NCBI GenBank assembly: GCA_964608095.1
Contig: CAZSMK010000026.1
Location: forward strand, 70,664 to 134,663
Source: an uncultured Candidatus Sumerlaeota bacterium
Lineage (GTDB): Bacteria; Sumerlaeota; Sumerlaeia; MWCT01; JAGHBZ01
DNA: 64,000 nucleotides
Direction: 5' to 3'
Under the pieces are notes generated by a model. That model searched no databases and was not told the origin of the DNA. It saw only the letters and a program-made list of their open reading frames with translations. How positions within the stretch are numbered: position 1 is the first letter of the stretch; each line of letters begins with the position of its first letter. A program made the position numbers and the translations under genes. Positions 9,528 through 57,770 of the stretch are shown one piece after another.

Positions 9528-10124
9528 ATGAAACTTGAACGTGTGTTTTTAGATGTCGCGACACAGCAGGATCGCATGATCCCCGGCGGCGCCTACTACG
9601 TACCAGGTGCGGAAACCATCGTGCCACTGCTCCAAAAGTTAAAAGAGTTCGCTGTAAAAAACGATGCGCTTATTATTTCTCCCGTTGATGTCCACAACCT
9701 CGCCGACTCCGAATTCTGCGACCACCCTTCTCATTGCGTGAAGGGTACCCCGGGTCAGGAAAAAATACCGGAAACTCTCGCAGAGAACCGAACCATAGTC
9801 GGCCTCGTAGCGGAATCCGACTTTAACCCAGCCCCCTACCAGCAGATTATTATCTACAAGACCGACTTTGATCCTTTCAGTAATCCGAACCTCGAGGGAA
9901 TTCTTTCAAAACTGCACGTCGAAGAGTTATGTATTTACGGCATTGCTACGGAAGAAGATATAAGAGCAGCCGCCATCGGCGCCGCAGAACGAGGATATCA
10001 CGTCACTGCCTTTAAAGATGCGATAAAAGCCGTAAGAGAAGACGAGGGAGAGAAAGCCATCTTCGAGATGATGGCCCTGGATATTGAAATGATCTCGGCT
10101 CGTGAACTCCTCGAGATGGAGTAG
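9528..10124 (+). CDS. pncA: Isochorismatase-family hydrolase, nicotinamidase (PncA)-like
   Basis: The metal-site pattern D.H...HP.HCVKGTPG is similar to PncA. 198 aa. Sits with the nadC, coaD and panB cofactor cluster. Confidence 0.55.
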   Translation: MKLERVFLDVATQQDRMIPGGAYYVPGAETIVPLLQKLKEFAVKNDALIISPVDVHNLADSEFCDHPSHCVKGTPGQEKIPETLAENRTIVGLVAESDFNPAPYQQIIIYKTDFDPFSNPNLEGILSKLHVEELCIYGIATEEDIRAAAIGAAERGYHVTAFKDAIKAVREDEGEKAIFEMMALDIEMISARELLEME

Positions 10125-10147
10125 CCCGCTATACGACGAAAGCACGT

Positions 10148-10921
10148 TTGCCTATGGAACCAAAAGTCATTGTCATTTTACCTGCCTACAACGAAGAAGA
10201 GAGCATAAACCGGCTCTTTGAAGGGTTTAGCCGAATCGTACCACACCTCGGCGACTACGAAATCATCCTGGTTAATGACGGCAGCACCGACAGAACCGTT
10301 CAACAGGCTGAAGCATGGCGCGAAAAACTGAATCTCGTCATCGTACACCACGAGAAAAACAAAGGGCTCGGTCCCGCTATCAAGACCGGTTTATACCACG
10401 CAATCGGCCATTCAGTCACCGGCAGCGACCCGATCGTATATATGGACGCAGACTGTACCCATCCGCCCTCGTATGTGCCGGAATTGGTGGCACAGGTCAA
10501 GGATGGAGCGGACATGGTGATTGCGTCGCGGTTCTTACCCGGAAGCAAAGAAGTCGGGGTACCGCTCATGAGGCGCCTCTACAGTCGCGGCGCACGATTC
10601 CTCTTCCACTTGTTACTGCCCCTACCCGGCGTCACGGATTTCACCTGCGGATTCAGGGCATACCGCTCGGGTTTGATCAAGAACGCGCTCGAACGTTTTG
10701 GCGACGCCATCATCGAACGAACCGGGTTCGCCTGCACCGACGACCTCCTCGTCAACCTCGCTACCTTCGATATTTCCATCGCCGAGATTCCCTTTACTCT
10801 ACGTTACGACCGTAAGAGAGGACAGAGCAAACTCAAACTGCTGCTCACGATAAAGGAGACGCTTCGCATGCTCCTCAAGGCACGCAAAAAACTCCTCGCA
10901 CCAAAACAGCCCTTGAACTGA
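10148..10921 (+). CDS. GT2 glycosyltransferase, polyprenol-phosphate mannose/glucose synthase (DPM1/ArnC-like)
   Basis: VIVILPAYNEEESI at the N-terminus and a DAD motif. 257 aa with no C-terminal TM segment. Confidence 0.75.
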   Translation: MPMEPKVIVILPAYNEEESINRLFEGFSRIVPHLGDYEIILVNDGSTDRTVQQAEAWREKLNLVIVHHEKNKGLGPAIKTGLYHAIGHSVTGSDPIVYMDADCTHPPSYVPELVAQVKDGADMVIASRFLPGSKEVGVPLMRRLYSRGARFLFHLLLPLPGVTDFTCGFRAYRSGLIKNALERFGDAIIERTGFACTDDLLVNLATFDISIAEIPFTLRYDRKRGQSKLKLLLTIKETLRMLLKARKKLLAPKQPLN

Positions 10922-45480: not shown

Positions 45481-47229
45481 TCAATAATTCTTCATGGCGG
45501 GAAAAGAACTGCGGGGGGAATGTATGGTCGTATGCGGCTTGGGGCAAAGTTTTGATGCAAGACCGAGCGCACCTTCCAGGGCGTCCAGACCATCGTCATG
45601 TGAAGACTGTGGAAAGTCGCGGCACTGGTCGATAAAGCCGGCACATAGTCGCTCGTTGAAGAGCAACCATTTATTTGCAATGAAAGGTTCGAGGCGAGTT
45701 ATTCGCGCAATTTTATTCTCGCGATGGGTTACCGGCTCGACGTGGAGCCGCCAGTGAATACGCCCCTCTCCCTTGAGACGTTTCCGTTCCTCTTCTATGG
45801 GCAGCATTAGCAAGGATTGGAAACAGTTTGCCTCAATGCCGAAGAGGGAATAGTTCCATCGCTCGTGAAGTTCGAAAATACGGCGCACTTGCTTGGTGGG
45901 CACGGCGCGCTCGAGCCACATATCAACGAGATAATAATACCCGAATCTGTCGACTCCTACGGTAGCGATAGCGGCAAAATCGGATGTTCGTGAGCGCCCC
46001 GAGGCGCCCAGCGCGGAATCCAGAAACCCCACCATTTTAAGCTCGGAAACATCAACCTTGCGCGCTCTCGTGGTTTCTGAAGCACCCTCTCTATCGTTCT
46101 TAACCATGATAACGCCTTTATCGAGTGAGAAGTACACGAAGGAGTCCGGATCGAAAATACGATGTTCTACCGAGCGAGGTTCGTTTTGTTTCTCCTTGAA
46201 AAACGCACGACGTCCACGGGTCGTAAGCTGACACATCAACTCGTAATAGTCCTCCTTCTGTCGCCAGAGCACCTTTACACCTTCGTTCATTGCTGTTTTA
46301 TGCTGGTCATAAAATGCGCGTGCGGTATTCATCCGGTTTGAATCCTTGAGATCGGTATACAAGCGCCGCCACTGCTCCCAGAGCGTGTGATGCGTCGCAA
46401 AGCTTTTGACGGCGACAAATCGCCTTGCGGAAAAATCGGGACGATGAAGCATATTCTCGAGCAGGCTCTCCCGGTGAAGTACCGTCCCGATAACGGATAC
46501 CCTCGTATAGGTATCGCCGAGGTTTTCAATCACCTCATTGAACCAGTTCATGAGTTTCTCACGCTGGTCGGGGCTCTCCACGGCTTCCGAGTCCTCGCCG
46601 TCGTCAATAATAATCAGCGTGGGCCTGACCTCGCGGTAGGTGATACCGCGAAGTTCCGTCCCGGCAGAGAACACATCCACCTGAATATCGTTTACGTTTA
46701 TACTCTTAGTAGTCCAGACCGTGCGCGCCTTGAGCTCCGAACTATACACGGATTTTAAAAGGGCGTTGTTGATGAGCTCCGACTTGATATTTTGGAGCCG
46801 CTGCTTCGCCTGTTTCAATGTCGCGGAAATAATAACGATGTATCGCTCTTGCGCATACAGGATAGAATGAACGGGCAGGATAAGGGTTTTAAGCGTTGAT
46901 TTGGCATAGCCACGCGGCGCGGCGACGACCTCATTGCCACCACGACGGTTAAGGACATCGTCGGTTATCCCCTTCTCATAGCGGTGAATAATATAGCGGT
47001 GCAGGGACGAGAAAGGCAACCGGCAGTAGTGAGGAAAAAAATAACGCGCGAACAGAAATACGTCATTCAGGCATCGAATCCTCAGCGCTTCTCTCACCGT
47101 TGCCGTTCTCTTGCATCTTCTCAAGAACTCGAGAAATTTCTTTCTGGAGCAAGTCGAGATCCGTTCTGTTACCGTTTTGTTCATCGCTGTAGTTAACCTC
47201 GAGGGAAACTGCATTCTGACGCCCTTCAT
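45481..47229 (-). CDS. Phage terminase large-subunit-like protein (ATPase + RNase-H-like nuclease)
   Basis: An N-terminal ARYFFPHY segment. A deviant Walker A VVAAPRGYAKST. A Walker B LIIIDDGED. A C-terminal nuclease-like region GIEANCFQS. The start is probably downstream of the annotated ATG, because the 5' 167 nt overlap the preceding ORF. Confidence 0.55.
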   Translation of the reverse strand: MKGVRMQFPSRLTTAMNKTVTERISTCSRKKFLEFLRRCKRTATVREALRIRCLNDVFLFARYFFPHYCRLPFSSLHRYIIHRYEKGITDDVLNRRGGNEVVAAPRGYAKSTLKTLILPVHSILYAQERYIVIISATLKQAKQRLQNIKSELINNALLKSVYSSELKARTVWTTKSINVNDIQVDVFSAGTELRGITYREVRPTLIIIDDGEDSEAVESPDQREKLMNWFNEVIENLGDTYTRVSVIGTVLHRESLLENMLHRPDFSARRFVAVKSFATHHTLWEQWRRLYTDLKDSNRMNTARAFYDQHKTAMNEGVKVLWRQKEDYYELMCQLTTRGRRAFFKEKQNEPRSVEHRIFDPDSFVYFSLDKGVIMVKNDREGASETTRARKVDVSELKMVGFLDSALGASGRSRTSDFAAIATVGVDRFGYYYLVDMWLERAVPTKQVRRIFELHERWNYSLFGIEANCFQSLLMLPIEEERKRLKGEGRIHWRLHVEPVTHRENKIARITRLEPFIANKWLLFNERLCAGFIDQCRDFPQSSHDDGLDALEGALGLASKLCPKPHTTIHSPRSSFPAMKNY

Positions 47230-47425
47230 GAATTCGTTTCAGGCAGTTAATGGCATAATAAAAATCGCGTATATTTTCGATCTTGTACGTTGTAATGGTT
47301 TTACCGCTTGCTTCGTCGACTACCTGGTGACGATGTTTTTTAAGGTAGGAGACAAGGATACGCTCAGCCTCACGCCATTCGCGCTCCATCTGTCTTGCAA
47401 GCTTTTGAAGTTTGTTCTGTCTCAT
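47063..47425 (-). CDS. Hypothetical small basic protein immediately upstream of the terminase-like gene (possible small-subunit or DNA-binding partner)
   Basis: A 120-aa charged ORF with no recognised motif. It overlaps the terminase-like ORF's 5' end. Confidence 0.3.
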   Translation of the reverse strand: MRQNKLQKLARQMEREWREAERILVSYLKKHRHQVVDEASGKTITTYKIENIRDFYYAINCLKRIHEGRQNAVSLEVNYSDEQNGNRTDLDLLQKEISRVLEKMQENGNGERSAEDSMPE

Positions 47426-47736
47426 TCATTAAGCCCGGTAGGATCGAAAATGTCCCTCATTAAAAAAAAGGACACGCTTATTTCACCATAAAACCCAATC
47501 TGGTACAATTCCCCTCGAAACCCTTGAAGACCCTTACGGCACCGAAATCTCAGGCTCCGATGACGTCAACCTGCTTTCCTGCGATGTAGAAGACCGGACT
47601 TTTGCATTGGGGAATATGTTTTATCGGACCGAGCGTTCCGAGCAGTCTGAGCAGTCCGAGAGGTATAAAAAAGAAGATGGGTCACCCGAAAAAGGTCGTG
47701 AATTCGCCTTTTCGTATGCGCTCGTTTTTTATCGGG

Positions 47737-49797
47737 CTATGGTAAGGGCAGTTCGTGTACCGCTGGATCGAACTCCTGGATTGCATCGCGTAACGCGCGC
47801 GATGCCGCAAGATGAACCTCCTTGGTCATTCCTGCACCTGTGCGCATTTCCTTGAACCGTTCCAGGGCATTATATTTCCTCAACTCGGGGCGTTTCGTAT
47901 AAAGGTCTCTATGGTCTTTCATTGAGGGTATATAGGCTTCCATATCTTTTTCCTTCACGACGCTGACTTCTTCAAACCCGATCCGCAGCCCATACACGGT
48001 ATAGTCGAACATGATGTCTGATTTTCCATTTTGTAGTTCTTTAACGACGATTTCTTGTGTGCTAACCGACGCCACATAGAGCCCATTACAATTCCCCCGA
48101 GGGGTCACGTGAGCGGTCAAGCCGATGTCTGGATTCGTCACCCATTTAAATGTCTCGCCGAGTTGGAGTGTGGCTTCGCCGTTGACTAATCTTCCCACAC
48201 CACGTGTGTAAGTCGCAACCTCGTCGCCTTCAGGTGCGGCATATACAATCACCTTGTCCTCTTCATAGGGATGATTCTGAACAAATGAGCAATCACCGGT
48301 ACCGTATATTTTGTGGGTGCTGTATCCGACGCGTGCATAGCCGCTGGAATCGGTATCGTCAAAGAAGCCCCCCGCCATAAGCCCATCTCCCCGCACCCCG
48401 ATGCCGTCAAGCCCAAGTTTTGCTTCGCAGTTACCGTCACGGTCTTTGAAGTACCCACCCGCTTCGGTTCCTTGCGCCCAGATACCCCATTCCTTTCCAT
48501 CGGCATCTTTATAACCGCAGCGCGCCTCGGCCTTCTCGTCGCTGTGAAGGAAATGACCGCCTACTTTGGCGCCCTTTGCCATAATGCCTTTTTCGCGTCC
48601 TTCGCCGTCTGTATAAGCGACCCAGGCTTCGCCGGTGCCATTCGAGTCTTTGAAATAGCCGCCCGCAGTATCTCCTTGTGCGCTCAGACCATAATGACCC
48701 GTTGCCAGAGATGCTTCCCCGGAAAAAATTTTTGACTTGAAATAGCCGCCCTTGCTTCCCTCGCCGTACACGGCGTAATCTCCCACACCCAGCTTTGCAA
48801 TGGAAAAATTAGGACCGTGAACCTCGAGCTTCGATGTGGGGGCTGGAGTACCGATACCCACATTGCCATCGCCAAGGTATAATGTACCGAATACTCCACC
48901 GTTTCTATCGTACGACTGGACGGTACCCCGGTGGCTTGCGCTGTTATAGGCCAATTCGAGACCTTCGCCGGTTCCTGCGGCAGGGAAGGTATCTTTGCGT
49001 ATACGAACAACGCCGTCCACGTCAAGCCTTGAGCCGGGTGTAGCGGTACCGATACCGACGTTTCCTGTGCCGTCCTGGATTACCATCCGTGTGCCGGGTG
49101 TTCCATTGTAGTCATACCAATACAAGTATTGACTGCCGGAATTCCAGGCGTTGCTCCATTTATTGACACTGTTTTGCTGAATGTCTATGCCCGTAATAGA
49201 GCCTGTGGTGTTGAGTTTGACTTTCGTATTATTCCCTTTAACGGTTAAATTCCCCTCGACCGCGGTCTTGCCGGTAAAATAACCGGCATAGCCGTTGCCT
49301 GTATTGGTGACGGACAATACGGCGTTTGGATGTGCTGCGGCCGCTGATAATTCTACGGGTGCGGTAATTCCCCCGGCTCTTTTCGCCTGGAACGCGAATG
49401 CCGCAGAAGAAATTTTTTGCCGGGGTTCGAAGATTTCACTCGCCTCGAATGTACTGTTATTGTTTGTATCCACTTCAGTTTCTATCCAGAGGTCGGGATA
49501 CGAACTGAAAAAGTCGACTGAAAACGGATTCGTGTCTCCGAGGACAACAGAGTAATACCCTTGAGTAACTGTCACCGCGTATGCCGCGATATGTGTTTCT
49601 TCCCAGAGTGAGGAGCCACCGCTCGCGATGTTATAAACCCGAAAACGCATGTTATAACTTCCGCTCGGTAGGGGTATGCCGTCTCCATCGCGCAAGACTC
49701 CCTGAAAAAAAAGTGTGTCAGATGCAAGAACCAGGCTTGCACACATCATCATCATACCCATGATTACTATACTTCTGAGTGTAATTCTGTACTTCAT
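47737..49797 (-). CDS. Secreted tail-fibre-like beta-repeat protein, paralogue 1
   Basis: It has a signal peptide. An N-terminal module FFQGVLRDGDGIPLPSGSYNMRFRVY. Tail-fibre-type segments GNVGIGTATPGSRLDVDG and GNVGIGTPAPTSKLEVHG. Multiple ~25-aa Gly-rich repeats (AGGYFKD..G.GEA). Confidence 0.5.
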   Translation of the reverse strand: MKYRITLRSIVIMGMMMMCASLVLASDTLFFQGVLRDGDGIPLPSGSYNMRFRVYNIASGGSSLWEETHIAAYAVTVTQGYYSVVLGDTNPFSVDFFSSYPDLWIETEVDTNNNSTFEASEIFEPRQKISSAAFAFQAKRAGGITAPVELSAAAAHPNAVLSVTNTGNGYAGYFTGKTAVEGNLTVKGNNTKVKLNTTGSITGIDIQQNSVNKWSNAWNSGSQYLYWYDYNGTPGTRMVIQDGTGNVGIGTATPGSRLDVDGVVRIRKDTFPAAGTGEGLELAYNSASHRGTVQSYDRNGGVFGTLYLGDGNVGIGTPAPTSKLEVHGPNFSIAKLGVGDYAVYGEGSKGGYFKSKIFSGEASLATGHYGLSAQGDTAGGYFKDSNGTGEAWVAYTDGEGREKGIMAKGAKVGGHFLHSDEKAEARCGYKDADGKEWGIWAQGTEAGGYFKDRDGNCEAKLGLDGIGVRGDGLMAGGFFDDTDSSGYARVGYSTHKIYGTGDCSFVQNHPYEEDKVIVYAAPEGDEVATYTRGVGRLVNGEATLQLGETFKWVTNPDIGLTAHVTPRGNCNGLYVASVSTQEIVVKELQNGKSDIMFDYTVYGLRIGFEEVSVVKEKDMEAYIPSMKDHRDLYTKRPELRKYNALERFKEMRTGAGMTKEVHLAASRALRDAIQEFDPAVHELPLP

Positions 49798-49841
49798 GAC
49801 TTCTATCTCCTTTTGTTCTCTCTATAGTTATGTTTTTCTTT

Positions 49842-51905
49842 TTATAGTTCCGGCGCTTTGTGAACCGCCGGGTCGAATACTTCAATCCTCTCTATCAAGG
49901 CTTGTGATTTTGCCAAATCAAGCGAGCCACTCGTGCCTGTTGTTTTAAGCATGTGTTTGAACCGTTCAAGGGCATTGAAGTCACGTAATCCCGCAGCTTT
50001 AGCATAGATTTCCTGATGTTCCGACATGGAAGGAATACGTGCCTCGAAGTCTTTTTCCTGCACAATACTTGCCTCTTCAAATCCTATCCTGAGACCGTTA
50101 ACGATATAATCAAAAGCGACGCTCGATTTCCCGTCATGCAATTCTCGAACAACCATTTCCTCTGTCGAGAGTGACGCCACATAGAGCCCTTTACAGTCTT
50201 CGCGGGGAGTAAGTTGCGCAGATAAGCCTATGTCTGGATTCGTAACCCATTTAAAGGTGTCGCCGAGTGATACGCGCGCTTTTCCGTTAACAAGACGCCC
50301 CGAGCCGCGGGTATAGGTAGCTACTTCATCGCCTTCCGGGGCTGCATACACAATAATTCTATCATTCTCATAAGGATGGTTCTGTACAAAGGTGCAATCA
50401 CCGACGCCGTAACATTTAGATGTATCGTGGGCGATTCTGACGAAGCTGGACTGATCGGTATCGTCGAATATGCCGCCCGCATAAGAACCAAATGCAGCGA
50501 TACCGTCATAGTGAGATGCAACCTCGACTTTACCGGTACCGTCAGTGGACTGGAAATACCCCCCTGCCTCGATTCCTTCCGCCCATAATCCCCATTCCTT
50601 GTTCTCTAAGTCTTTATACCCGCAGCGAACCTCGGCGTTCTCGTCGCTGTGAAGGAAATGACCGCCGACTTTGGCGCCCTTTGCCATTATACCTTCTTCG
50701 CGTCCTTCGCCGTCTGTATAAGCGACCCAGGCTTCGCCGGTGCCATTCGAGTCTTTGAAATAGCCGCCTGCCGAGTCGCCTTGTGCGCTCAGACCATAAT
50801 GCCCCGTTGCTGCGCTGGCTTCCCCGGAAAAGGTCTTTGTCTTGAAGTATCCGCCCTTGCTGCCCTCGCCATACACGGCGTAATCTCCCACGCCAAGCTT
50901 TGCAATGGTAAAATTTAAACCGTGCACCTCGAGCGGTGCTGTGGGAATGTCCGTACCTATACCGACGTTACCATCACCGAGATACAACGTTCCCCAGGCG
51001 CTTGTTGTTCTGTTCCACACCTGGATATATCCCCTGCTCAAGCTGGCGTTATAGGCAAGCTCAAGACTTCCACCGGTGCCGACAGCGGGCCAGCTCGGTA
51101 CTCCCTTGATACGAGCAGCACCGTCTACGTCCAGTGTTGCGGCGGGTGAGGCTGTTCCGATTCCAACGTACCCCGTACCGTCCTGGATTACCATCCTCGT
51201 CCCCGGCGTTCCGTTGAAATCATACCAGTAGATATATTGACTCCCGGCATTCCATGCATTGCTCCACTTACTAACGCCATTTTGCTGAACATCTATTCCT
51301 GTCAACACATCATTGGTGTTTAATTCAAGTCTGGGTTCGGTGTCTACCACGATAAGGTCCCCCTCGATGACCGTATTATTCAAAAATAAGCCGGCATAGC
51401 CGGTCCAAAGAGTAGTAACTGACAATACTGCGGCTGGGTGGGAGAGCGCACCGCTTATGTGAAGGGGAACGGGAAAGGAGTCGGTATTCTTCGCCATGAA
51501 CGCATAGGCAACGGAATGAAACTCTATCCTTGGAGAAAAATTTTCTTCAGCTTCAAAGGAACCGTTTGTATTCAAGTCAACCGTGACCTCGAGCCAGAGT
51601 TCGGGGTGAAGAACAAAGAACTTCTCACTGAAGGGTGAAATGGCACCCAGCTCAACCGAGAAGTGTCCTTGCACAACGTCGACAGCAGAAGCGGAGGTGT
51701 GATATTCATTCCAGAGTGAACCTCCATCCATCTCAGCATCAAACAACCAGAAGCGCATATTGTATGTTCCCGTTGCAAGGGGAACCCCGTTGCCGTCTTT
51801 GAGCATTCCCTGAATGATGATGGAATCGGAGGCAAGAAGAATATGAGTGATGAGGACAAGGGCAAGGATTACAGAAGATTCAATTATATTAAATTTGTAC
51901 CGCAT
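49842..51905 (-). CDS. Secreted tail-fibre-like beta-repeat protein, paralogue 2
   Basis: 687 aa, colinear with paralogue 1. It has the same signal-peptide, GYVGIGTASPAATLDVDG / GNVGIGTDIPTAPLEVHG and Gly-rich repeat blocks. Confidence 0.5.
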   Translation of the reverse strand: MRYKFNIIESSVILALVLITHILLASDSIIIQGMLKDGNGVPLATGTYNMRFWLFDAEMDGGSLWNEYHTSASAVDVVQGHFSVELGAISPFSEKFFVLHPELWLEVTVDLNTNGSFEAEENFSPRIEFHSVAYAFMAKNTDSFPVPLHISGALSHPAAVLSVTTLWTGYAGLFLNNTVIEGDLIVVDTEPRLELNTNDVLTGIDVQQNGVSKWSNAWNAGSQYIYWYDFNGTPGTRMVIQDGTGYVGIGTASPAATLDVDGAARIKGVPSWPAVGTGGSLELAYNASLSRGYIQVWNRTTSAWGTLYLGDGNVGIGTDIPTAPLEVHGLNFTIAKLGVGDYAVYGEGSKGGYFKTKTFSGEASAATGHYGLSAQGDSAGGYFKDSNGTGEAWVAYTDGEGREEGIMAKGAKVGGHFLHSDENAEVRCGYKDLENKEWGLWAEGIEAGGYFQSTDGTGKVEVASHYDGIAAFGSYAGGIFDDTDQSSFVRIAHDTSKCYGVGDCTFVQNHPYENDRIIVYAAPEGDEVATYTRGSGRLVNGKARVSLGDTFKWVTNPDIGLSAQLTPREDCKGLYVASLSTEEMVVRELHDGKSSVAFDYIVNGLRIGFEEASIVQEKDFEARIPSMSEHQEIYAKAAGLRDFNALERFKHMLKTTGTSGSLDLAKSQALIERIEVFDPAVHKAPEL

Positions 51906-52121: not shown

Positions 52122-52445
52122 TCAGGGTTGGGGTCGATCTGACTCCTTCGTCTTCAGTGCGGACTTCTTTCGGATAAGAGATATGGTTTTGTTCATTTTC
52201 AGGTATCTAACAATACCGATGATATTGGTGATGAGTCCGACAGAGATACTTGCAACGCCGAGGGCTAAAAACCATCGTTCGCGGACGAATTGCAAAATGG
52301 TCACACCGGCAATAAACAGGGCGACTCCCGCACGCAGATATGCCAGCAGCGTTCGTTCGTTTGCCAGAACCGTACGATCGATTGCGAGCTCATCTCTCAG
52401 AATCAGGTTTTCATTTTCAAACTTTCTATAGGGTGACTGTTTCAT
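52122..52445 (-). CDS. DUF202 (YidH-like) small membrane protein
   Basis: The RT.LA repeats (DRTVLANERTLLAYLRAG) followed by 2 TM helices. 107 aa. Confidence 0.7.
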   Translation of the reverse strand: MKQSPYRKFENENLILRDELAIDRTVLANERTLLAYLRAGVALFIAGVTILQFVRERWFLALGVASISVGLITNIIGIVRYLKMNKTISLIRKKSALKTKESDRPQP

Positions 52446-52454
52446 GACAAAGCC

Positions 52455-53087
52455 TTAACTTTTTATAATCTTTTGTTTTAGTCCGACGAGCGCGTCGAAA
52501 TCGTTCTTCATAGTCTCACGGATTTCGGGAAATCTCATACCCGCGGCAGGATGATACGTCAGAAAATAACACCGCCCGTCTTTGTCTATCGTCTTTCCGT
52601 GCAATTCCTTCATGGAGCCTTTCATGCCTGAGAGATTTTTCACCGCTACTTTGCCAAGCAGGACAACAATTGCGGGCTGAATCAACTCGATCTGTGGCTT
52701 CAGCCAGTTGGCTATACATGTTGCGGGTTCGTCGTCGCGTGGTTCTCTATTGTCCGGTGGTCTGCATTTCACGCAACTGGTGATAAAGAGACGTCTTCGG
52801 CTTAACCCGGCGATTTGAAGAACCTCGTCGAGAAATTTACCCGCACGACCGCAAAATGGTCTTCCGTTTATGTCTTCCTGTTCGCCCGGCGCTTCCCCTA
52901 TGAGCATAATGCGCGACGAAACATCGCCTTCACCCGGAACGGCATGTCTCCTGTTTTTATAAAGGCGACATTTCCGGCACCGCTCTATCCCATGATGTAT
53001 ATGCTGGAGTTCCTCTGTCTTGGTAAGAGACATGTGTATAAATCCCTGAAGGCTGAAAGAACATAATCTGGTATGCGAGGTTTTCAA
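52455..53087 (-). CDS. Uracil-DNA glycosylase, family 4 (Fe-S type)
   Basis: CRKCRLYK..VPGEGD...IMLIGEAPGEQED..GRPFCGRAGKFL is the UDG4 signature. Confidence 0.8.
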   Translation of the reverse strand: MKTSHTRLCSFSLQGFIHMSLTKTEELQHIHHGIERCRKCRLYKNRRHAVPGEGDVSSRIMLIGEAPGEQEDINGRPFCGRAGKFLDEVLQIAGLSRRRLFITSCVKCRPPDNREPRDDEPATCIANWLKPQIELIQPAIVVLLGKVAVKNLSGMKGSMKELHGKTIDKDGRCYFLTYHPAAGMRFPEIRETMKNDFDALVGLKQKIIKS

Positions 53088-53359: not shown

Positions 53360-54045
53360 GCCTGCTACAAAAAAGTACGATTCGAAAGACTCGTGGAGTC
53401 AAGCGCCACATGATAAAAAAGATGACCTGGCAAGCCGATGAACTACTGATAGAAGCTGGATAGACATCGGAGAAGATATCTTCCCTGCAGTCGTTGTGGT
53501 AAGCGGGGAATGGTTCGCGATCGATTAAAGCCTCGCAAGTGGCGGCATGCCCCGTTGTCGGGAATACCGGTGACCATACACTACGCCCCGGCTCAAGTAC
53601 GATGTAAGAAGGGTGGCAAGATCGTGGTAGAGGACATTCCTTGGGCTCTGGGAAAATGCCGTCTTTCGAGGGGGTTGATCTGGTTACTAACAAGATGGAC
53701 CACGTTATTAGCCGGGGATGTCGTGGCTCGATTGTTTGGCGTGCATTGGAACACCGTAGCAACGGCGGTAAGACAAGCGGTGAGCTATGGTCTGAACCAT
53801 CGAGAACTGGGAACGGTTCTGTATATAGGGGTCGATGAACTCTCTCGTCGGAAAGGTCATACCTATGTAACGAATATCTATGATTTGTCTCAACGCCGTT
53901 TACTCTGGTCAGGAGAAGGGCGCAGTATCGAAACATTGGAAGCATTTTTTAAGAACATGGCGAGGCCTTACAGGACAAAGTTGTGGGAGTGTGCTGTGAT
54001 ATGTGGAAGCCCTATATTACGATGATACAGAAGCATCCTGCGGCA
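53360..54045 (+). pseudogene. ISL3-family (IS204/IS1001/IS1096/IS1165) transposase N-terminal fragment, frameshifted and 3'-truncated
   Basis: A zinc-finger-like CSRCGK..VRC segment in one frame. Then V.W.TV...V...GL, IGVDELSRRKGHTYVTNIYDL and LWSGEGRS..L..FF in the 53510 frame. CDMWKPYI continues in a third frame. There is no DDE catalytic core and there are no terminal inverted repeats. Confidence 0.6.
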
Positions 54046-54275
54046 ACCTGTTCCAAAATGGAACAGGTTGACTCTTTTTCTAACTCACCCGTTTTGTAAA
54101 TATTATTGATGTGTTTAACAATTGCAGGGCGATTCACATCAAAAAGTTTTGCAATTAAATGCGCATCAAGCCAGACAGTATCCTGTTCAAGTTTAACTTG
54201 TATTTCCGGCCCGGTTGGAGATTTGTAAATTATTATTTCGCCTTTTTTGAAATCGGCTTGCTTCATAGGACGCAT
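54046..54275 (-). pseudogene. RhuM-family protein, N-terminal ~80 aa only (truncated)
   Basis: GEIIIYKSPTGPEIQVKLEQDTVWLDAHLIAKLF..R.AIVKHINNIYKTGELEKESTCS matches RhuM N-termini. Homology stops at the 54040-54064 palindrome. Confidence 0.55.
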
Positions 54276-54877
54276 ATTAACACCATATCAACGGCTTAAT
54301 GAGTGTATAATCCAAATCTCTGGTACCTGCCTGCCGCGCCGCATCTTCACTCCACTTTCTTAATCTACCTGCTTCTAATTCTCGTTTTATACATTTTCCA
54401 CCAAAACCGGTTTTAAGTTCTTTTTCTCTTTTTACCCCCCCTCACGAGTTTCAAACGCCTCTAAAAACATCTTGCAATGCTTTATAAAATTTCTGTTCCT
54501 TTGTCATAGAACCAATCCTTACCTTGATAATCTCACGATGCTGTCCATCTTCTCTGCCCTGAAAGCTCATGCCATACGAATATCCTCAACTTTCTTCTCT
54601 CACATCCCGCCTCATTCTTTGATTTTCATGCAACATCTCTGGAGTCTTTATCTCGCTTGATGACTACCGTACTTAATAATCTCTTGTTTCCGACATCCAT
54701 AGACGTTGCCATAAAGTCATATTGTTTTCAGCGCATTACTTAATGTTTTCTGCTCGTCTTTTGAATCTTTTCCGAAAACCACATAAAGAGATGATATGAA
54801 CTCCGTAGATAGGGTGCAACAAGTATTTGAACGTCCTCGTTTTTGAAGATAGGTTAATCCTGAGCGTGCTACGCTAG

Positions 54878-55153
54878 TCAGGAATCTGGACGAATCGGCT
54901 CTGTACGTAACTTCATGCCGAGGGCATGGATAACATTGAGGATTGTGTCGAAGCGCGGGATTCGCTCCCCGGAGAGGGCTTTGTAAAGGCTTTCTCGCAT
55001 CAGGCTGGCATCACGCGCTATCTGTAACATACCCCGTGCCCGTGCGATATTGCCTAACGCTTTAGCAATAAATGCAGCATCGCCTCCTGCTTCATCGAGA
55101 CAGGCTTCAAGATACGCAGCCATCTCATCATTCATGGGTACGCAGATGTTCAT
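54878..55153 (-). CDS. Addiction-module antidote protein, HigA family (TIGR02684-like). No adjacent killer gene.
   Basis: AAYLEACLDEAGGDAAFIAKALGNIARARGMLQIARDASLMRESLYKALS. 91 aa. Confidence 0.6.
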   Translation of the reverse strand: MNICVPMNDEMAAYLEACLDEAGGDAAFIAKALGNIARARGMLQIARDASLMRESLYKALSGERIPRFDTILNVIHALGMKLRTEPIRPDS

Positions 55154-55185: not shown

Positions 55186-55215
55186 ACAAAAATACTCCTG
55201 AAGATTCCTCAGGAG
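55186..55215 (-). terminator. Rho-independent terminator for the HhH-protein gene
   Basis: On the minus strand, ctcctgaggaatcttcaggag (7-bp stem) followed by tattttt. It overlaps the stop codon. Confidence 0.5.
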
Positions 55216-56090
55216 TGGGTGGCATAATGTTTTTTGCACTCGGCTTCGCGGCCGCGTACTACTCGTTTTCCTTTTAGTTCTCCGTGTTCAGCGGTTACTA
55301 CTGTACATTGGTCTTCCTCGTTGTCCTTTTTAAAATAAACGACGACCCAATCGTGAGTTTTTCCGAGTTCATGCGCCTTTGCCGTATTGGAATATAGAAC
55401 CGTGAAGCTCCAACCATTCCGCTTGGTCTTCATGAGGGGAAGCCATTTTTCGCCTTCAGGATTGAATCGTCGCGGCGCGATTTTCTTCAGTGTATCCTTC
55501 TCCGCTTTTGTACGGTACTCTTCGTCAATATCGAGAAGAAGATTGATCGAGGGAACATCAGTTTCTTTTCGCTTTTGGCGTCGACGTGCCCTGCGCGATG
55601 ACGAGCGGCTCAACATCCCTGCAAGAGCATTGATCACCCCCTCGACACGTTTTTCACCGACCCCTTCGAGCGACTCCAGCCGCCCGTCATGTGCCGCTTG
55701 CTCGAGCTCTTCCAACGACTCGATACCAAGCTCTTCATGAATACGACGAGCGAGTTCCTCTCCTATACCGGGCACCCGCGTAAAAACTCGTTCAGGAGAT
55801 ATTTCGCTCTCGAGCTTGTCAACGAGCCCGAGCCGGCCCGTTTGCACGAATTCCTGGATCAAGCCGGCAAGTTTCAAACCAATACCCGCTATATCGGTCA
55901 ATCCTTCCGCTCCCTTCTCCTTTACCAATGCCGCTATCGACTCATCTGTGTTTCTCACGGATCGAGCTGCTTTTCTATAACTTTGTATGCGGAAAGTATT
56001 TTTGTCCAGGATCTCGAGCAAATCTGCGATGTGATCGAAGGTATCGGCGATCCTGTCGTTATCTATGTTCCCGGTTACCATGAAGTTCAC
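55209..56090 (-). CDS. Helix-hairpin-helix DNA-binding protein with a PolX-type N-terminal (8-kDa/lyase + fingers) module. It has an uncharacterised basic C-terminal domain and no palm/thumb.
   Basis: NDRIADTFDHIADLLEI..FRIQSYRKAARSV...IAGIG..LAGLIQEF..TGRL mirrors the Pol beta/PolX N-terminus. A second HhH is VPGIGEELARRIHEELGIESLEEL. 293 aa. Confidence 0.5.
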   Translation of the reverse strand: MNFMVTGNIDNDRIADTFDHIADLLEILDKNTFRIQSYRKAARSVRNTDESIAALVKEKGAEGLTDIAGIGLKLAGLIQEFVQTGRLGLVDKLESEISPERVFTRVPGIGEELARRIHEELGIESLEELEQAAHDGRLESLEGVGEKRVEGVINALAGMLSRSSSRRARRRQKRKETDVPSINLLLDIDEEYRTKAEKDTLKKIAPRRFNPEGEKWLPLMKTKRNGWSFTVLYSNTAKAHELGKTHDWVVVYFKKDNEEDQCTVVTAEHGELKGKRVVRGREAECKKHYATHS

Positions 56091-56206: not shown

Positions 56207-56650
56207 TTACCGTCTAAAAGTGCCGATATATTCTGCCGAATCAAGCACATGTTCCTTCATCGCGTCCATGACATCGCTTTTAGTGGCGCCTGGGTCGAGT
56301 TCGAGCGTAGTATCCAGGGCATAAAGTCGGAAATGATAATGATGCGGCGGGTCGCCTTCCGGCGGCATAGGTCCCCCGTATTTCATGTTCCCGAAACTGT
56401 TCTCGCCCATCAACCCAATGGTAGACTCATCCTCTTCCAAAGAACTCACATGCGATGGGATTTTGTAAAGAACCCAGTGAACCCATGGTTCTTCCTGCGG
56501 CGCATCGGGATCGTCGCATATCAGGACAAATTCTTTTGTGTCGCCCGGCACATCGTCCCACTCGAAGGGCGGCGATATATTTTCTCTTTCTCCTGTGTAT
56601 TTTACCGGCAGTGCCTCTTCATAGCCAAATGCAGCGCTTTTCAATTTCAT
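56207..56650 (-). CDS. YbhB/YbcL-family PEBP (Raf-kinase-inhibitor-like) protein
   Basis: The patterns F.L.M.DPDAP and HHY.F.LYALD. 147 aa. Confidence 0.8.
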   Translation of the reverse strand: MKLKSAAFGYEEALPVKYTGERENISPPFEWDDVPGDTKEFVLICDDPDAPQEEPWVHWVLYKIPSHVSSLEEDESTIGLMGENSFGNMKYGGPMPPEGDPPHHYHFRLYALDTTLELDPGATKSDVMDAMKEHVLDSAEYIGTFRR

Positions 56651-56910: not shown

Positions 56911-57696
56911 ATGACCCATCAAAAAAGTAAACAAAGAAACAGACTTATCGCAGGAATAGACGATGCGACAAAATGCCCCTGCATCGGGAGTATTTTTATA
57001 GTGGGTGTTGTGGCGGACGATAAATCTGTGAGGAAATGGAAGTCCCTCGGCGTCAAGGACAGCAAGTTATTGACGCCGAAACGAAGAGAACATCTCGCCG
57101 GCATTATCAAGGAAACAGCTCATCAATATATTATCTGCGAACTGACGCCTTCACAGATCGACGACAAGTGCTTCAACCTCAACGAGTGGGAGATGCTGAC
57201 CGTATTACAAATCGTCTCGCGATTCGATGCGCTTGAGCAGATCGAAGAGGTCATAGTCGACAACTGGGAGGTCAAGGAAGAAAAATTTGCCGAGAGATTG
57301 GCATCGATGACAAGAAAGTCGCTCGCCAAACTCCTGAAAGAAAAGAACGTGGATATAAACCGCGAGAGGATTCCGGAGATTCTATTCAAACCCGAACACT
57401 ATGCGGATGAAACCTATACTATCGTGGGCGCGGCATCCATTCTTGCCAAGACGTCATCGGATAAACAGTATGCGGACTACAGGGAGAAATACGGAGATTT
57501 CGGAAGCGGTAGTCCGGGTGATCCACTCACGCGTCTCTTTGTATGGCAACATCGTAAAAATCCTCTTCCCATAATCAGGACAAGCTGGCAAACGTTCAAA
57601 GACCTCTCGGTTATAGAACGCATCGAGGCGGATGAGTTATATGCCACTCGAAGCGGAAACATAGCCGGTCGGCTCGAAAGGGGTACTAAAAAATAA
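56911..57696 (+). CDS. rnhB: Archaeal-type RNase HII homologue with a divergent active-site motif
   Basis: DSKLLTPKRREHL, IVDNWE, ADETYTIVGAASILAK and YGDFGSGSPGDPLTR are colinear with Thermococcus-type RNase HII. The canonical GIDEAGRGP is replaced by GIDDATKCP. Confidence 0.6.
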   Translation: MTHQKSKQRNRLIAGIDDATKCPCIGSIFIVGVVADDKSVRKWKSLGVKDSKLLTPKRREHLAGIIKETAHQYIICELTPSQIDDKCFNLNEWEMLTVLQIVSRFDALEQIEEVIVDNWEVKEEKFAERLASMTRKSLAKLLKEKNVDINRERIPEILFKPEHYADETYTIVGAASILAKTSSDKQYADYREKYGDFGSGSPGDPLTRLFVWQHRKNPLPIIRTSWQTFKDLSVIERIEADELYATRSGNIAGRLERGTKK

Positions 57697-57736: not shown

Positions 57737-57770
57737 CCCCGGGAGAGAACTTACCCGGGGTAATTTTTTA
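57737..57770. terminator. Bidirectional rho-independent terminator between rnhB-like (+) and PFOR (-)
   Basis: ccccggg agagaactta cccgggg (7-bp stem). It is flanked by a T-run on the + strand (taatttttt) and an A/T-rich stretch on the other side. Confidence 0.55.

Follow-up and report, generated by a model that had tools for sequence, protein, structure and literature searches.

A bacterial subfamily of archaeal-type RNase HII with an exchanged RNA-DNA junction sensor and operon-distance linkage to LigD-type repair genes

Introduction

What does an enzyme do that has kept the catalytic centre of a ribonuclease HII (RNase HII) and exchanged the residues with which such enzymes read an RNA-DNA junction? 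The question is raised by an open reading frame (ORF) at positions 56911 to 57696, on the forward strand, of a 64-kb stretch of DNA from an uncultured “Candidatus Sumerlaeota” bacterium (contig CAZSMK010000026.1, positions 70,664 to 134,663; the whole stretch is referred to here as the window). An earlier note, made from the sequence alone, had described the product as an archaeal-type RNase HII homologue and proposed that it was a diverged paralogue, possibly inactive, rather than the ordinary rnhB. Here, we show that the product of the ORF is under strong constraint and belongs to a bacterial subfamily of archaeal-type type-2 RNase H that is monophyletic. This subfamily has kept the catalytic centre, that is, four carboxylates, the nearby His and the phosphate-binding Lys residues of the DSK and AASILAK motifs, while the RNA-DNA junction sensor has been exchanged whole (TKC for GRG, Ser for the supporting Arg and Ser or Asn for Tyr). 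It is an extra copy beside the canonical bacterial rnhB, and in many lineages it is linked at operon distance to genes for a stand-alone LigD-type ligase, a primase-polymerase (Prim-Pol), a 3′-phosphoesterase (PE) and Fpg/Nei.

The roles of the exchanged residues are known from structures of Thermotoga RNase H2 with substrate, in which GRG and Tyr together form the sensor of the 2′-OH and of the RNA-DNA junction (PMC3025331; PMC13492167). An Arg (R141 of the Thermotoga maritima enzyme) stabilizes the GRG loop, the lysines of DSK and AASILAK bind backbone phosphates, and a G-to-S change at GRG cripples the enzyme (PMC3025331).

Results

The gene, its fold and its active site

The ORF runs from an ATG at 56911 to a TAA at 57694 to 57696 and encodes 261 amino acids (aa). 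It matched the Pfam family RNase_HII (PF01351) with an E value of 5.3e-26 and 92.2 bits (cut-off, 25.8), with residues 14 to 228 covering positions 1 to 198 of the 199 in the model, and it scored 138.1 bits against NCBIfam TIGR00729 (cut-off, 123.3). The nearest solved structures were the RNases HII of Thermococcus kodakarensis (2dfh, 9.4e-33; 1io2, 1.2e-32) and Pyrococcus horikoshii (1uax), with E values ranging from ca. 1e-32 to 2e-30. An AlphaFold2 model built on 26 homologues had a predicted local distance difference test (pLDDT) score of 90.6; it contained both the catalytic alpha/beta domain and the C-terminal helical domain of the RNase HII fold, and Foldseek aligned it with 1uax and 1io2 at a probability of 1.00 and a target-normalized template-modelling (TM) score of 0.88. 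The RNase HIII profile TIGR00716, in turn, gave only 42.9 bits, below its cut-off of 161.2, and the model has just 12 residues ahead of strand 1, so that the N-terminal domain typical of RNase HIII is missing.

In the alignment with the T. kodakarensis enzyme (Tk-RNase HII), the first catalytic motif reads IAGIDDATKCPCIGS in the ORF and IAGIDEAGRGPVIGP in Tk, and the two proteins are colinear through the DSKLLTPKRRE, AASILAK and GSG.P.DP.TR regions. The earlier note, which had reported GIDDATKC in place of GIDEAGRG and colinearity through the DSK, AASILAK and GSG regions, was therefore correct on both counts. The four active-site carboxylates (D-E-D-D) are all present, as D17, D18, D117 and D166 (Tk D7, E8, D105 and D135), and residue-by-residue alignment places H163 on the conserved His of Tk (H132). 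The loop D17-D18-A19-T20-K21-C22 (56959 to 56976) thus stands where D-E-A-G-R-G is expected, with T20-K21-C22 aligned with G-R-G; the third catalytic Asp opens the stretch D117-N118-W119-E120 (57259 to 57270), whose NWE is specific to the clade; and the conserved His and the fourth catalytic Asp lie in H163-Y-A-D166 (57397 to 57408).

Further differences go beyond those listed in the earlier note. Ser183 (57457 to 57459) occupies the site of the Arg that supports GRG (Tk R152, T. maritima R141, in AASILAKVTRD). Within the helix-loop-helix motif G198-S-G-S201-P-G-D-P (57502 to 57525), the junction-sensing Tyr is replaced by Ser201 (codon at 57511 to 57513), so that GSGSPGDP is found where GSGYPSDP would be expected. 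Relative to Tk, ca. 25 residues are inserted between D117 and H163; the clade-specific insertion (residues 121 to 160; 57271 to 57390) appears as a gap in the Tk alignment and as an extra helix in the AlphaFold2 model, which places helices at 123 to 133 and 136 to 144. Finally, a C-terminal extension (residues 233 to 261; 57607 to 57693), absent from canonical enzymes, carries an acidic motif that reads IEADELY in the ORF and IEDDP[LIF]Y across the clade, with D241 invariant.

A monophyletic clade under strong constraint

A search of 5.8 billion proteins returned 3388 matches, and motifs were counted in the best 120 of these, which were 53 to 63% identical to the ORF protein. The replacement loop was found in all 120 (117 DD[AT]TKC, one DEATKC, one DDATRC and one unmatched), as was GSG[SN]P, with Tyr never present at that site. 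Since an identical (100%) protein is recorded in other assemblies and 68 columns were invariant among 26 homologues with 49 to 59% identity to the query, the pattern seen in the ORF is far beyond chance. The invariant columns include D17, D18, T20, K21, C22, P23, D117-N-W-E, H163, D166, K180, S183 and G198-S-G.

We then compared alignment columns among 120 clade members, 10 sister sequences and 95 canonical archaeal-type representatives. Within the clade, D17, D117 and D166 were conserved at 100% and D18 at 99%, and the phosphate-binding lysines K52 (DSK) and K180 (AASILAK) were both kept at 100%. Conservation of this kind, together with the invariance of His163 among the 26 homologues, speaks against the suggestion that the protein is inactive. 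T20 and C22 were found in 100% and K21 in 99% of clade members, where the canonical enzymes have G (100%), G (100%) and R (93%), respectively, and position 183 was Ser in 100% of the clade versus Arg in 100% of the canonical set. The DNWE stretch was fixed to the same degree (D, N and W, 100%; E, 99%), at a place where canonical enzymes show A, a gap and D. Clade and canonical enzymes have in common the carboxylates, DSK, AASILAK, GSG, R223 and W226; the switched positions (clade/canonical) are 18 (D/E), 20 (T/G), 21 (K/R), 22 (C/G), 27 (S/P), 183 (S/R) and 201 (S or N/Y). The sister subclade and the canonical enzymes are ca. 215 to 225 aa long.

The fates of GRG and Tyr were compared in 150 representatives at 50% identity. 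All GRG-less representatives were also Tyr-less (for example, S beside DDATKC and N beside DDATRC or DETAKS), and all G[RK]G representatives in which the second motif could be located carried the Tyr. DDAGRG with an intact Tyr was found in ca. 10 otherwise canonical representatives, and the change from Glu to Asp alone is therefore unremarkable. Thus, the earlier note had read both this change and the loss of GRG correctly, but had laid too much weight on the former. As judged from the sequences, what sets the clade apart is that GRG, Tyr and the supporting Arg have been lost together. Given that these three make up the module that reads the 2′-OH and the junction, the clade has swapped its sensor as a unit and seems to have kept catalysis and duplex binding.

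In a neighbour-joining tree of 144 sequences, the 20 GRG-less sequences formed one clade with no canonical member inside, so that the variant does define a clade, as the earlier note had proposed to check. One of its two branches combines DDATKC with Ser, the other DDATRC with Asn. Since midpoint rooting was uninformative, the tree was read as an unrooted split.

More divergent GRG-less variants, with DDVTRC and GSG[SN]PGD, were seen on viral (IMG/VR) and metagenome contigs (loci L048, 7974 to 8630; L049; and L074, 7914 to 8639). In these, the third catalytic Asp is replaced by Asn (INNFD), and at L048 an ATP-dependent ligase lies 3.5 kb upstream. Decayed copies were also met: one is frameshifted (L036, ca. 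10001 to 10700), one has an internal deletion (L041, 10001 to 10165) and one is degenerate, with GIENATKC and deletions (L040, 4167 to 4679), which indicates that the variant gene is dispensable in some lineages.

An extra copy beside the canonical rnhB

Among 42 loci in species-representative genomes, most hosts were Dependentiae (TM6, Babeliales); the other labels were Zixibacteria, Ignavibacteria, Atribacterota, Actinomycetota and Buchananbacteria. The RecJ encoded in the window itself had its closest matches among proteins named “Candidatus Sumerlaeota” (60% identity), which points tentatively to that phylum. In a complete Babeliales chromosome (OY969622.1, locus L005), a canonical bacterial-type rnhB (GIDEVGRG ... 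KGY) lies ca. 5 kb from the variant. In a second Babeliales assembly, the closest homologue of this canonical gene (P0271) shares a contig of 585,661 bp (contig_45610) with another variant (L013), and a further canonical rnhB (P0376) and variant (L038), whose contigs agree in length (267,836 bp), probably make a third same-contig pair.

The two genes have quite different neighbourhoods. The surroundings of the canonical rnhB in these genomes are fixed and comprise a LexA-like gene, rpsF-rpsR, BipA and FtsY, and neither a LigD module nor Fpg was found near it in any of the seven loci examined as a control. The Dependentiae-type canonical genes (L092 to L095 and L047) were always divergent from the LexA-like gene (HTH_3 plus Peptidase_S24) and adjoined rpsF-rpsR. 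Monophyly, a canonical rnhB on the same contig and the differing neighbourhoods all bear out the proposal of a diverged paralogue that is not the ordinary rnhB. Recurrence of the motif in housekeeping orthologues of related taxa, along with the lack of any other RNase HII in the genome, had been named as the finding that would speak against this; the motif does recur, in thousands of orthologues, yet those are not the housekeeping copies. Within the window, and in the ca. 68 kb of its contig that the search covered, no second RNase HII was found (phmmer with an approximate Escherichia coli RnhB query and canonical archaeal representatives, which did bring up the canonical rnhB of L005). At one contig of 333 kb (CAVRKK010000001.1), two DDATKC-type paralogues (L009 and L039) lie ca. 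217 kb apart.

Linkage to LigD-type repair genes

For the loci of relatives, ORFs were called and clustered and the recurrent clusters annotated, after which hidden Markov models of the clusters and metagenome loci were added. The recurrent neighbour families were an ATP-dependent DNA ligase (PF01068 plus PF04679), the LigD Prim-Pol (PF21686, 8.6e-87), the LigD PE (PF13298, 7.3e-45), Fpg/Nei, a metallo-beta-lactamase (MBL)-fold protein of ca. 230 aa, PEBP and an erythromycin-esterase-like protein. Counting no more than two genes to each side of the variant, in 39 loci, the commonest Pfam families were the ATP-dependent ligase (8), Fpg/Nei (6), MBL (6) and the LigD Prim-Pol (5). A LigD module was present in the fetched flank of 15 of 34 lineages (clusters at 70% identity). 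The flanks reached 8 to 10 kb, and 16 of the 19 ligase genes were within 2.5 kb of the variant; all PE genes were within 1.5 kb. A rough binomial test gave P values of ca. 1e-3 to 1e-6, whose significance is overstated because loci were treated as independent.

The gene order also points to operons in several arrangements. The RNase-like gene is followed by PE, ligase and Prim-Pol, and in places by MBL or Fpg, the genes being −25 to 24 bp apart, at four loci (L018, L012, L015 and L072); the ligase precedes the RNase-like gene at three (L076, L090 and L032); and the orders Fpg, Prim-Pol, RNase-like (L001) and RNase-like, Fpg (L091) were found once each. The ligase and Prim-Pol of L018 exceed the NCBIfam cut-offs for the corresponding LigD domains (TIGR02779 and TIGR02778). 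In three of four further loci that were looked up, a ligase or Fpg gene directly adjoins the variant.

The MBL-fold protein (ca. 230 aa, with weak similarity to RNase Z) is encoded within 1 kb of the variant at L014, L016, L017, L022, L031 and L032, and at L018 (13228 to 13932) its gene is the last of the operon made up of the RNase-like, PE, ligase and Prim-Pol genes.

Surroundings of the gene in the window

The RNase HII-like gene is free-standing in the window. Downstream of it, a hairpin read by eye (57737 to 57769; CCCCGGG, 10 nt, CCCGGGG, followed by TAATTTTTT) has T-runs on both strands (an A/T-rich run on the other strand) and sits between the convergent RNase HII-like and pyruvate:ferredoxin oxidoreductase (PFOR) genes, so that from its sequence it looks like a bidirectional terminator. 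A promoter and terminator consensus scan of the window found nothing above background; it missed this hairpin because the loop is longer than 8 nt. The GC content of the gene, ca. 45%, equals that of the flanking core genes and gives no compositional sign of recent transfer.

On the other side, a PEBP/YbhB-family gene (56207 to 56650, reverse strand; TIGR00481, 132.5 bits) is divergent from the RNase HII-like gene, and it was the sole match when ligase, Prim-Pol, PE, Fpg and MBL representatives were compared with the window by tblastn. A PEBP gene also directly adjoins the variant at L002 and lies 4 to 8 kb away at L012, L017, L018 and L058, a weak recurrence. Downstream of PEBP, a helix-hairpin-helix (HhH) protein (55209 to 56090, reverse strand; HHH_8, 9.3e-23; HHH_5, 1.2e-13) aligns with residues 3 to 150 of Thermus PolX (3b0x; 8-kDa and fingers domains) at 2.2e-21. 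It has no palm, thumb or PHP domain, and its C-terminal ca. 110 aa match no family; a possible role is that of a lyase or of a stand-alone protein that binds gaps or ends. No HhH gene was found near the variant in the other loci, and no link to the RNase HII-like gene was shown. A family-4 uracil-DNA glycosylase (52122 to 53087, reverse strand; TIGR00758, 171 bits) lies 4 kb from the variant and is followed by the gene of a DUF202 membrane protein.

The earlier placement of the gene at the edge of an accessory island was fair, given the mobile or prophage patch at 45.5 to 55.2 kb. Its first part (45481 to 51905) contains a terminase large subunit (phrog_38, 1.8e-79) and, after it, a pair of paralogous ORFs (ca. 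686 aa) with only weak matches to tail-fibre PHROGs and none to Pfam families, and looks like a prophage remnant. Mobile-element debris follows at 53510 to 55153, with part of an ISL3 transposase (PF01610, 2e-9), an N-terminal fragment of 87 aa that matches the PDC-S05 models of PADLOC (1e-24) and lies 2.6 kb from the variant, and an orphan antitoxin of the HI1420 type without a toxin gene beside it. PADLOC, applied to the RNase HII-like protein and eight neighbours, reported nothing besides the truncated 87-aa PDC-S05-like fragment. A defence function was dropped as a candidate, PADLOC being negative for the protein and for its PEBP and HhH neighbours. A phage-borne origin was rejected despite the nearby terminase, the scan of viral contigs having given two distant variants (32 to 36% identity).

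Discussion

Comparison with known systems

Archaeal RNase HII (1io2, 1uax and Archaeoglobus fulgidus 1i39) resembles the variant in structure (target-normalized TM score as given above; root mean square deviation, 2.1 to 2.9 Å; 30 to 34% identity), in motif order, in its metal ligands (with the conservative change of Glu to Asp), in the DSK and AASILAK lysines and in R223/W226. It differs in that the variant has TKC, Ser for both Tyr and Arg, the extra helix and DNWE, as well as an acidic C-terminal tail where the archaeal enzyme has its PCNA-binding motif, and in that the hosts of the variant are bacteria that also carry the bacterial-type rnhB.

By analogy, the best functional counterpart is RNase HIII (Bacillus stearothermophilus, 2d0a), a type-2 RNase H that likewise does without the junction-sensing Tyr and the central Arg and leaves junctions at single ribonucleoside monophosphates (rNMPs) uncut. 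However, RNase HIII keeps two glycines and has an N-terminal substrate-binding domain, whereas the variant lacks both glycines and that domain and has an invariant Pro23. These differences, together with the TIGR00716 score, indicate that the sensor was lost independently in the variant. The engineered yeast Rnh201 mutant P45D-Y219A (“RED”) shows what loss of the sensor can do, as it retains 25 to 40% of the activity towards RNA/DNA hybrids but <0.1% of that on single rNMPs; Y219A alone abolishes all RNase H2 activity, and RNase HIII has Asp, Ser or Glu at the position equivalent to Pro45 (PMC3597693). The mutant is, however, an artificial change of two residues that needs an acid at P45, while the clade has changed at least five sensor or support positions and keeps the Pro.

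The neighbour set, namely, an ATP-dependent ligase, a Prim-Pol of the archaeo-eukaryotic primase type, Fpg and PE, is that of LigD and of the mycobacterial LigC/Prim-PolC/FPG operons. In mycobacteria, Prim-PolC and LigC fill short gaps with rNMPs, FPG is co-transcribed in some species, and the removal of the resulting ribonucleotide patch was left open, with PolA suggested (PMC5663958). The description of those operons includes no RNase HII-like gene (PMC5663958), and in the Dependentiae-type genomes analysed here, unlike in mycobacterial LigC/LigD, the modules are separate genes with no Ku adjoining. The protein family as such is already known. The GRG-less, Tyr-less clade and its linkage to repair genes are new to the literature searched, which holds no description of such an archaeal-type clade or of an RNase HII-like gene in LigD/LigC operons; a 2026 review of RNase HII mentions neither.

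A possible role in ribonucleotide-using repair

Taken as a whole, these data suggest that the variant probably has a specialized repair role. The explanation that we favour, tentatively and with a little under half of our confidence, is that of a nuclease for ribonucleotide-containing repair intermediates that would serve the gap and break repair carried out with ribonucleoside triphosphates (rNTPs) by its neighbours. The protein would be an active, metal-dependent nuclease that binds its duplex as RNase HII does and would no longer select single-rNMP junctions. Its targets would be those intermediates or products of the pathway encoded next to it (Prim-Pol, ligase, PE and Fpg) that contain ribonucleotides. 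Where Prim-Pol and ligase leave short ribonucleotide patches or ribo-extended ends, it would cut or remove these, with a junction-independent cleavage resembling that of RNase HIII. The analogies with RNase HIII and with the yeast double mutant make such cleavage plausible.

Several observations weigh against this explanation. Neither ligase, Prim-Pol, PE nor Fpg was found within the 64-kb window; the repair link, strong for the clade, is for the window gene carried over from its orthologues and should be read accordingly. About half of the lineages have no such neighbour, including all Zixibacteria and Ignavibacteria loci, and Ku did not rank with the frequent families in the four genes to each side of the variant. 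Many of the loci come from a single phylum (Dependentiae) and are therefore not independent. In addition, given that Y219A inactivates the yeast enzyme and that the acidic residue that rescues it is not used here, Pro23 being invariant, activity of the variant cannot be taken for granted; only T20, C22 or S201 could then provide compensation, and the sequence does not reveal the substrate. A pathway that leaves single embedded rNMPs, moreover, would seem to need the very junction sensor that the variant lost.

These uncertainties leave room for other explanations. The variant might be a general ribonuclease of RNA/DNA hybrids that stands in for RNase HI or HIII in clearing R-loops and primers, evolved from archaeal-type RNase HII by loss of the sensor, in which case its closeness to LigD and Fpg would be inherited gene order. 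RNase HIII, which behaves like a type-1 enzyme without Tyr and central Arg, offers a precedent, the yeast RED mutant shows that this specificity can be reached (PMC3597693), and about half of the lineages have neither a LigD nor an Fpg neighbour; the failure to find rnhA in the fetched DNA (phmmer, approximate E. coli RnhA query) is uninformative, as the sample was small. We nonetheless consider such a role unlikely, since the linkage is of operon scale, comes in several arrangements and extends to Atribacterota- and Buchananbacteria-labelled bins, and since a housekeeping gene would be expected in a stable neighbourhood, as seen for the canonical rnhB. A somewhat smaller chance is left to a nuclease that has moved off RNA altogether and acts in base-excision repair or end joining on DNA structures such as flaps, displaced strands, abasic sites or blocked 3′ ends from Fpg/Nei and Prim-Pol. 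Such a shift would fit the replacement of all the 2′-OH-sensing elements, the frequent position of Fpg/Nei as a direct neighbour and the newly invariant DNWE, W43, R129, Q186, W212 and R215 along with the inserted helix near the active-site strand. Yet the duplex-binding residues are unchanged, 3′-end cleaning is already supplied by PE in the same operons, and we know of no type-2 RNase H that cuts DNA-only substrates.

That the gene is an ordinary housekeeping RNase HII for ribonucleotide excision repair, in which the motif differences are tolerated drift, is improbable. Its score does exceed the equivalog cut-off of TIGR00729, clade members are named “ribonuclease HII” by NCBI and JGI, the catalytic residues are intact and the window holds no other RNase HII. 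However, the canonical rnhB coexists with the variant and keeps the housekeeping neighbourhood, the 95 canonical representatives never vary in the two glycines of GRG or in the supporting Arg and have the central Arg in 93% of cases, and the enzyme is crippled by G-to-S and Y-to-A changes at these sites (PMC3025331; PMC3597693). The replacement residues are themselves invariant, which argues for selection rather than drift. We think it more improbable again that the protein is a catalytically dead nucleic-acid binder or, as the earlier note had put forward, a sensor or effector that belongs to the mobile or defence island next to it. It does adjoin the terminase, the tail-fibre-like ORFs, the ISL3 fragment, the orphan antitoxin and the PDC-S05-like fragment, and loss of the Tyr alone inactivates yeast RNase H2 (PMC3597693). 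Against this stand the four carboxylates conserved at 99 to 100%, the lack of a PADLOC match for the protein or its direct neighbours, the near absence of the clade from viral contigs (two distant variants), a GC content like that of the flanking core genes and the recurrent neighbours elsewhere, which are DNA-repair genes.

Implications

The role in rNTP-using repair that we favour can be taken one step further. The DDATKC clade might add a third functional class to the natural type-2 RNases H, dedicated to repair together with the stand-alone LigD/LigC-type ligase, Prim-Pol, PE and Fpg/Nei and acting on substrates to which canonical RNase HII is poorly suited, for example, short ribonucleotide patches, ribo-terminated nicks and damaged or abasic ribonucleotides. 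We regard this wider claim as possible but rather doubtful. If true, it would supply the missing RNA-removal step in the break and gap repair that bacteria carry out with rNTPs.

The findings also bear on annotation. Thousands of such proteins are labelled “ribonuclease HII” by databases (NCBI and JGI names), yet they are without the known elements for recognition of embedded ribonucleotides, and the label is probably functionally wrong for the whole clade. The clade is a natural counterpart of the separation of RNase H2 activities engineered in yeast and a test bed for the interdependence of junction sensor and metal site. The operon link, in turn, makes it a candidate for an open step in bacterial nonhomologous end joining and LigC-type excision repair, the fate of the inserted ribonucleotides.

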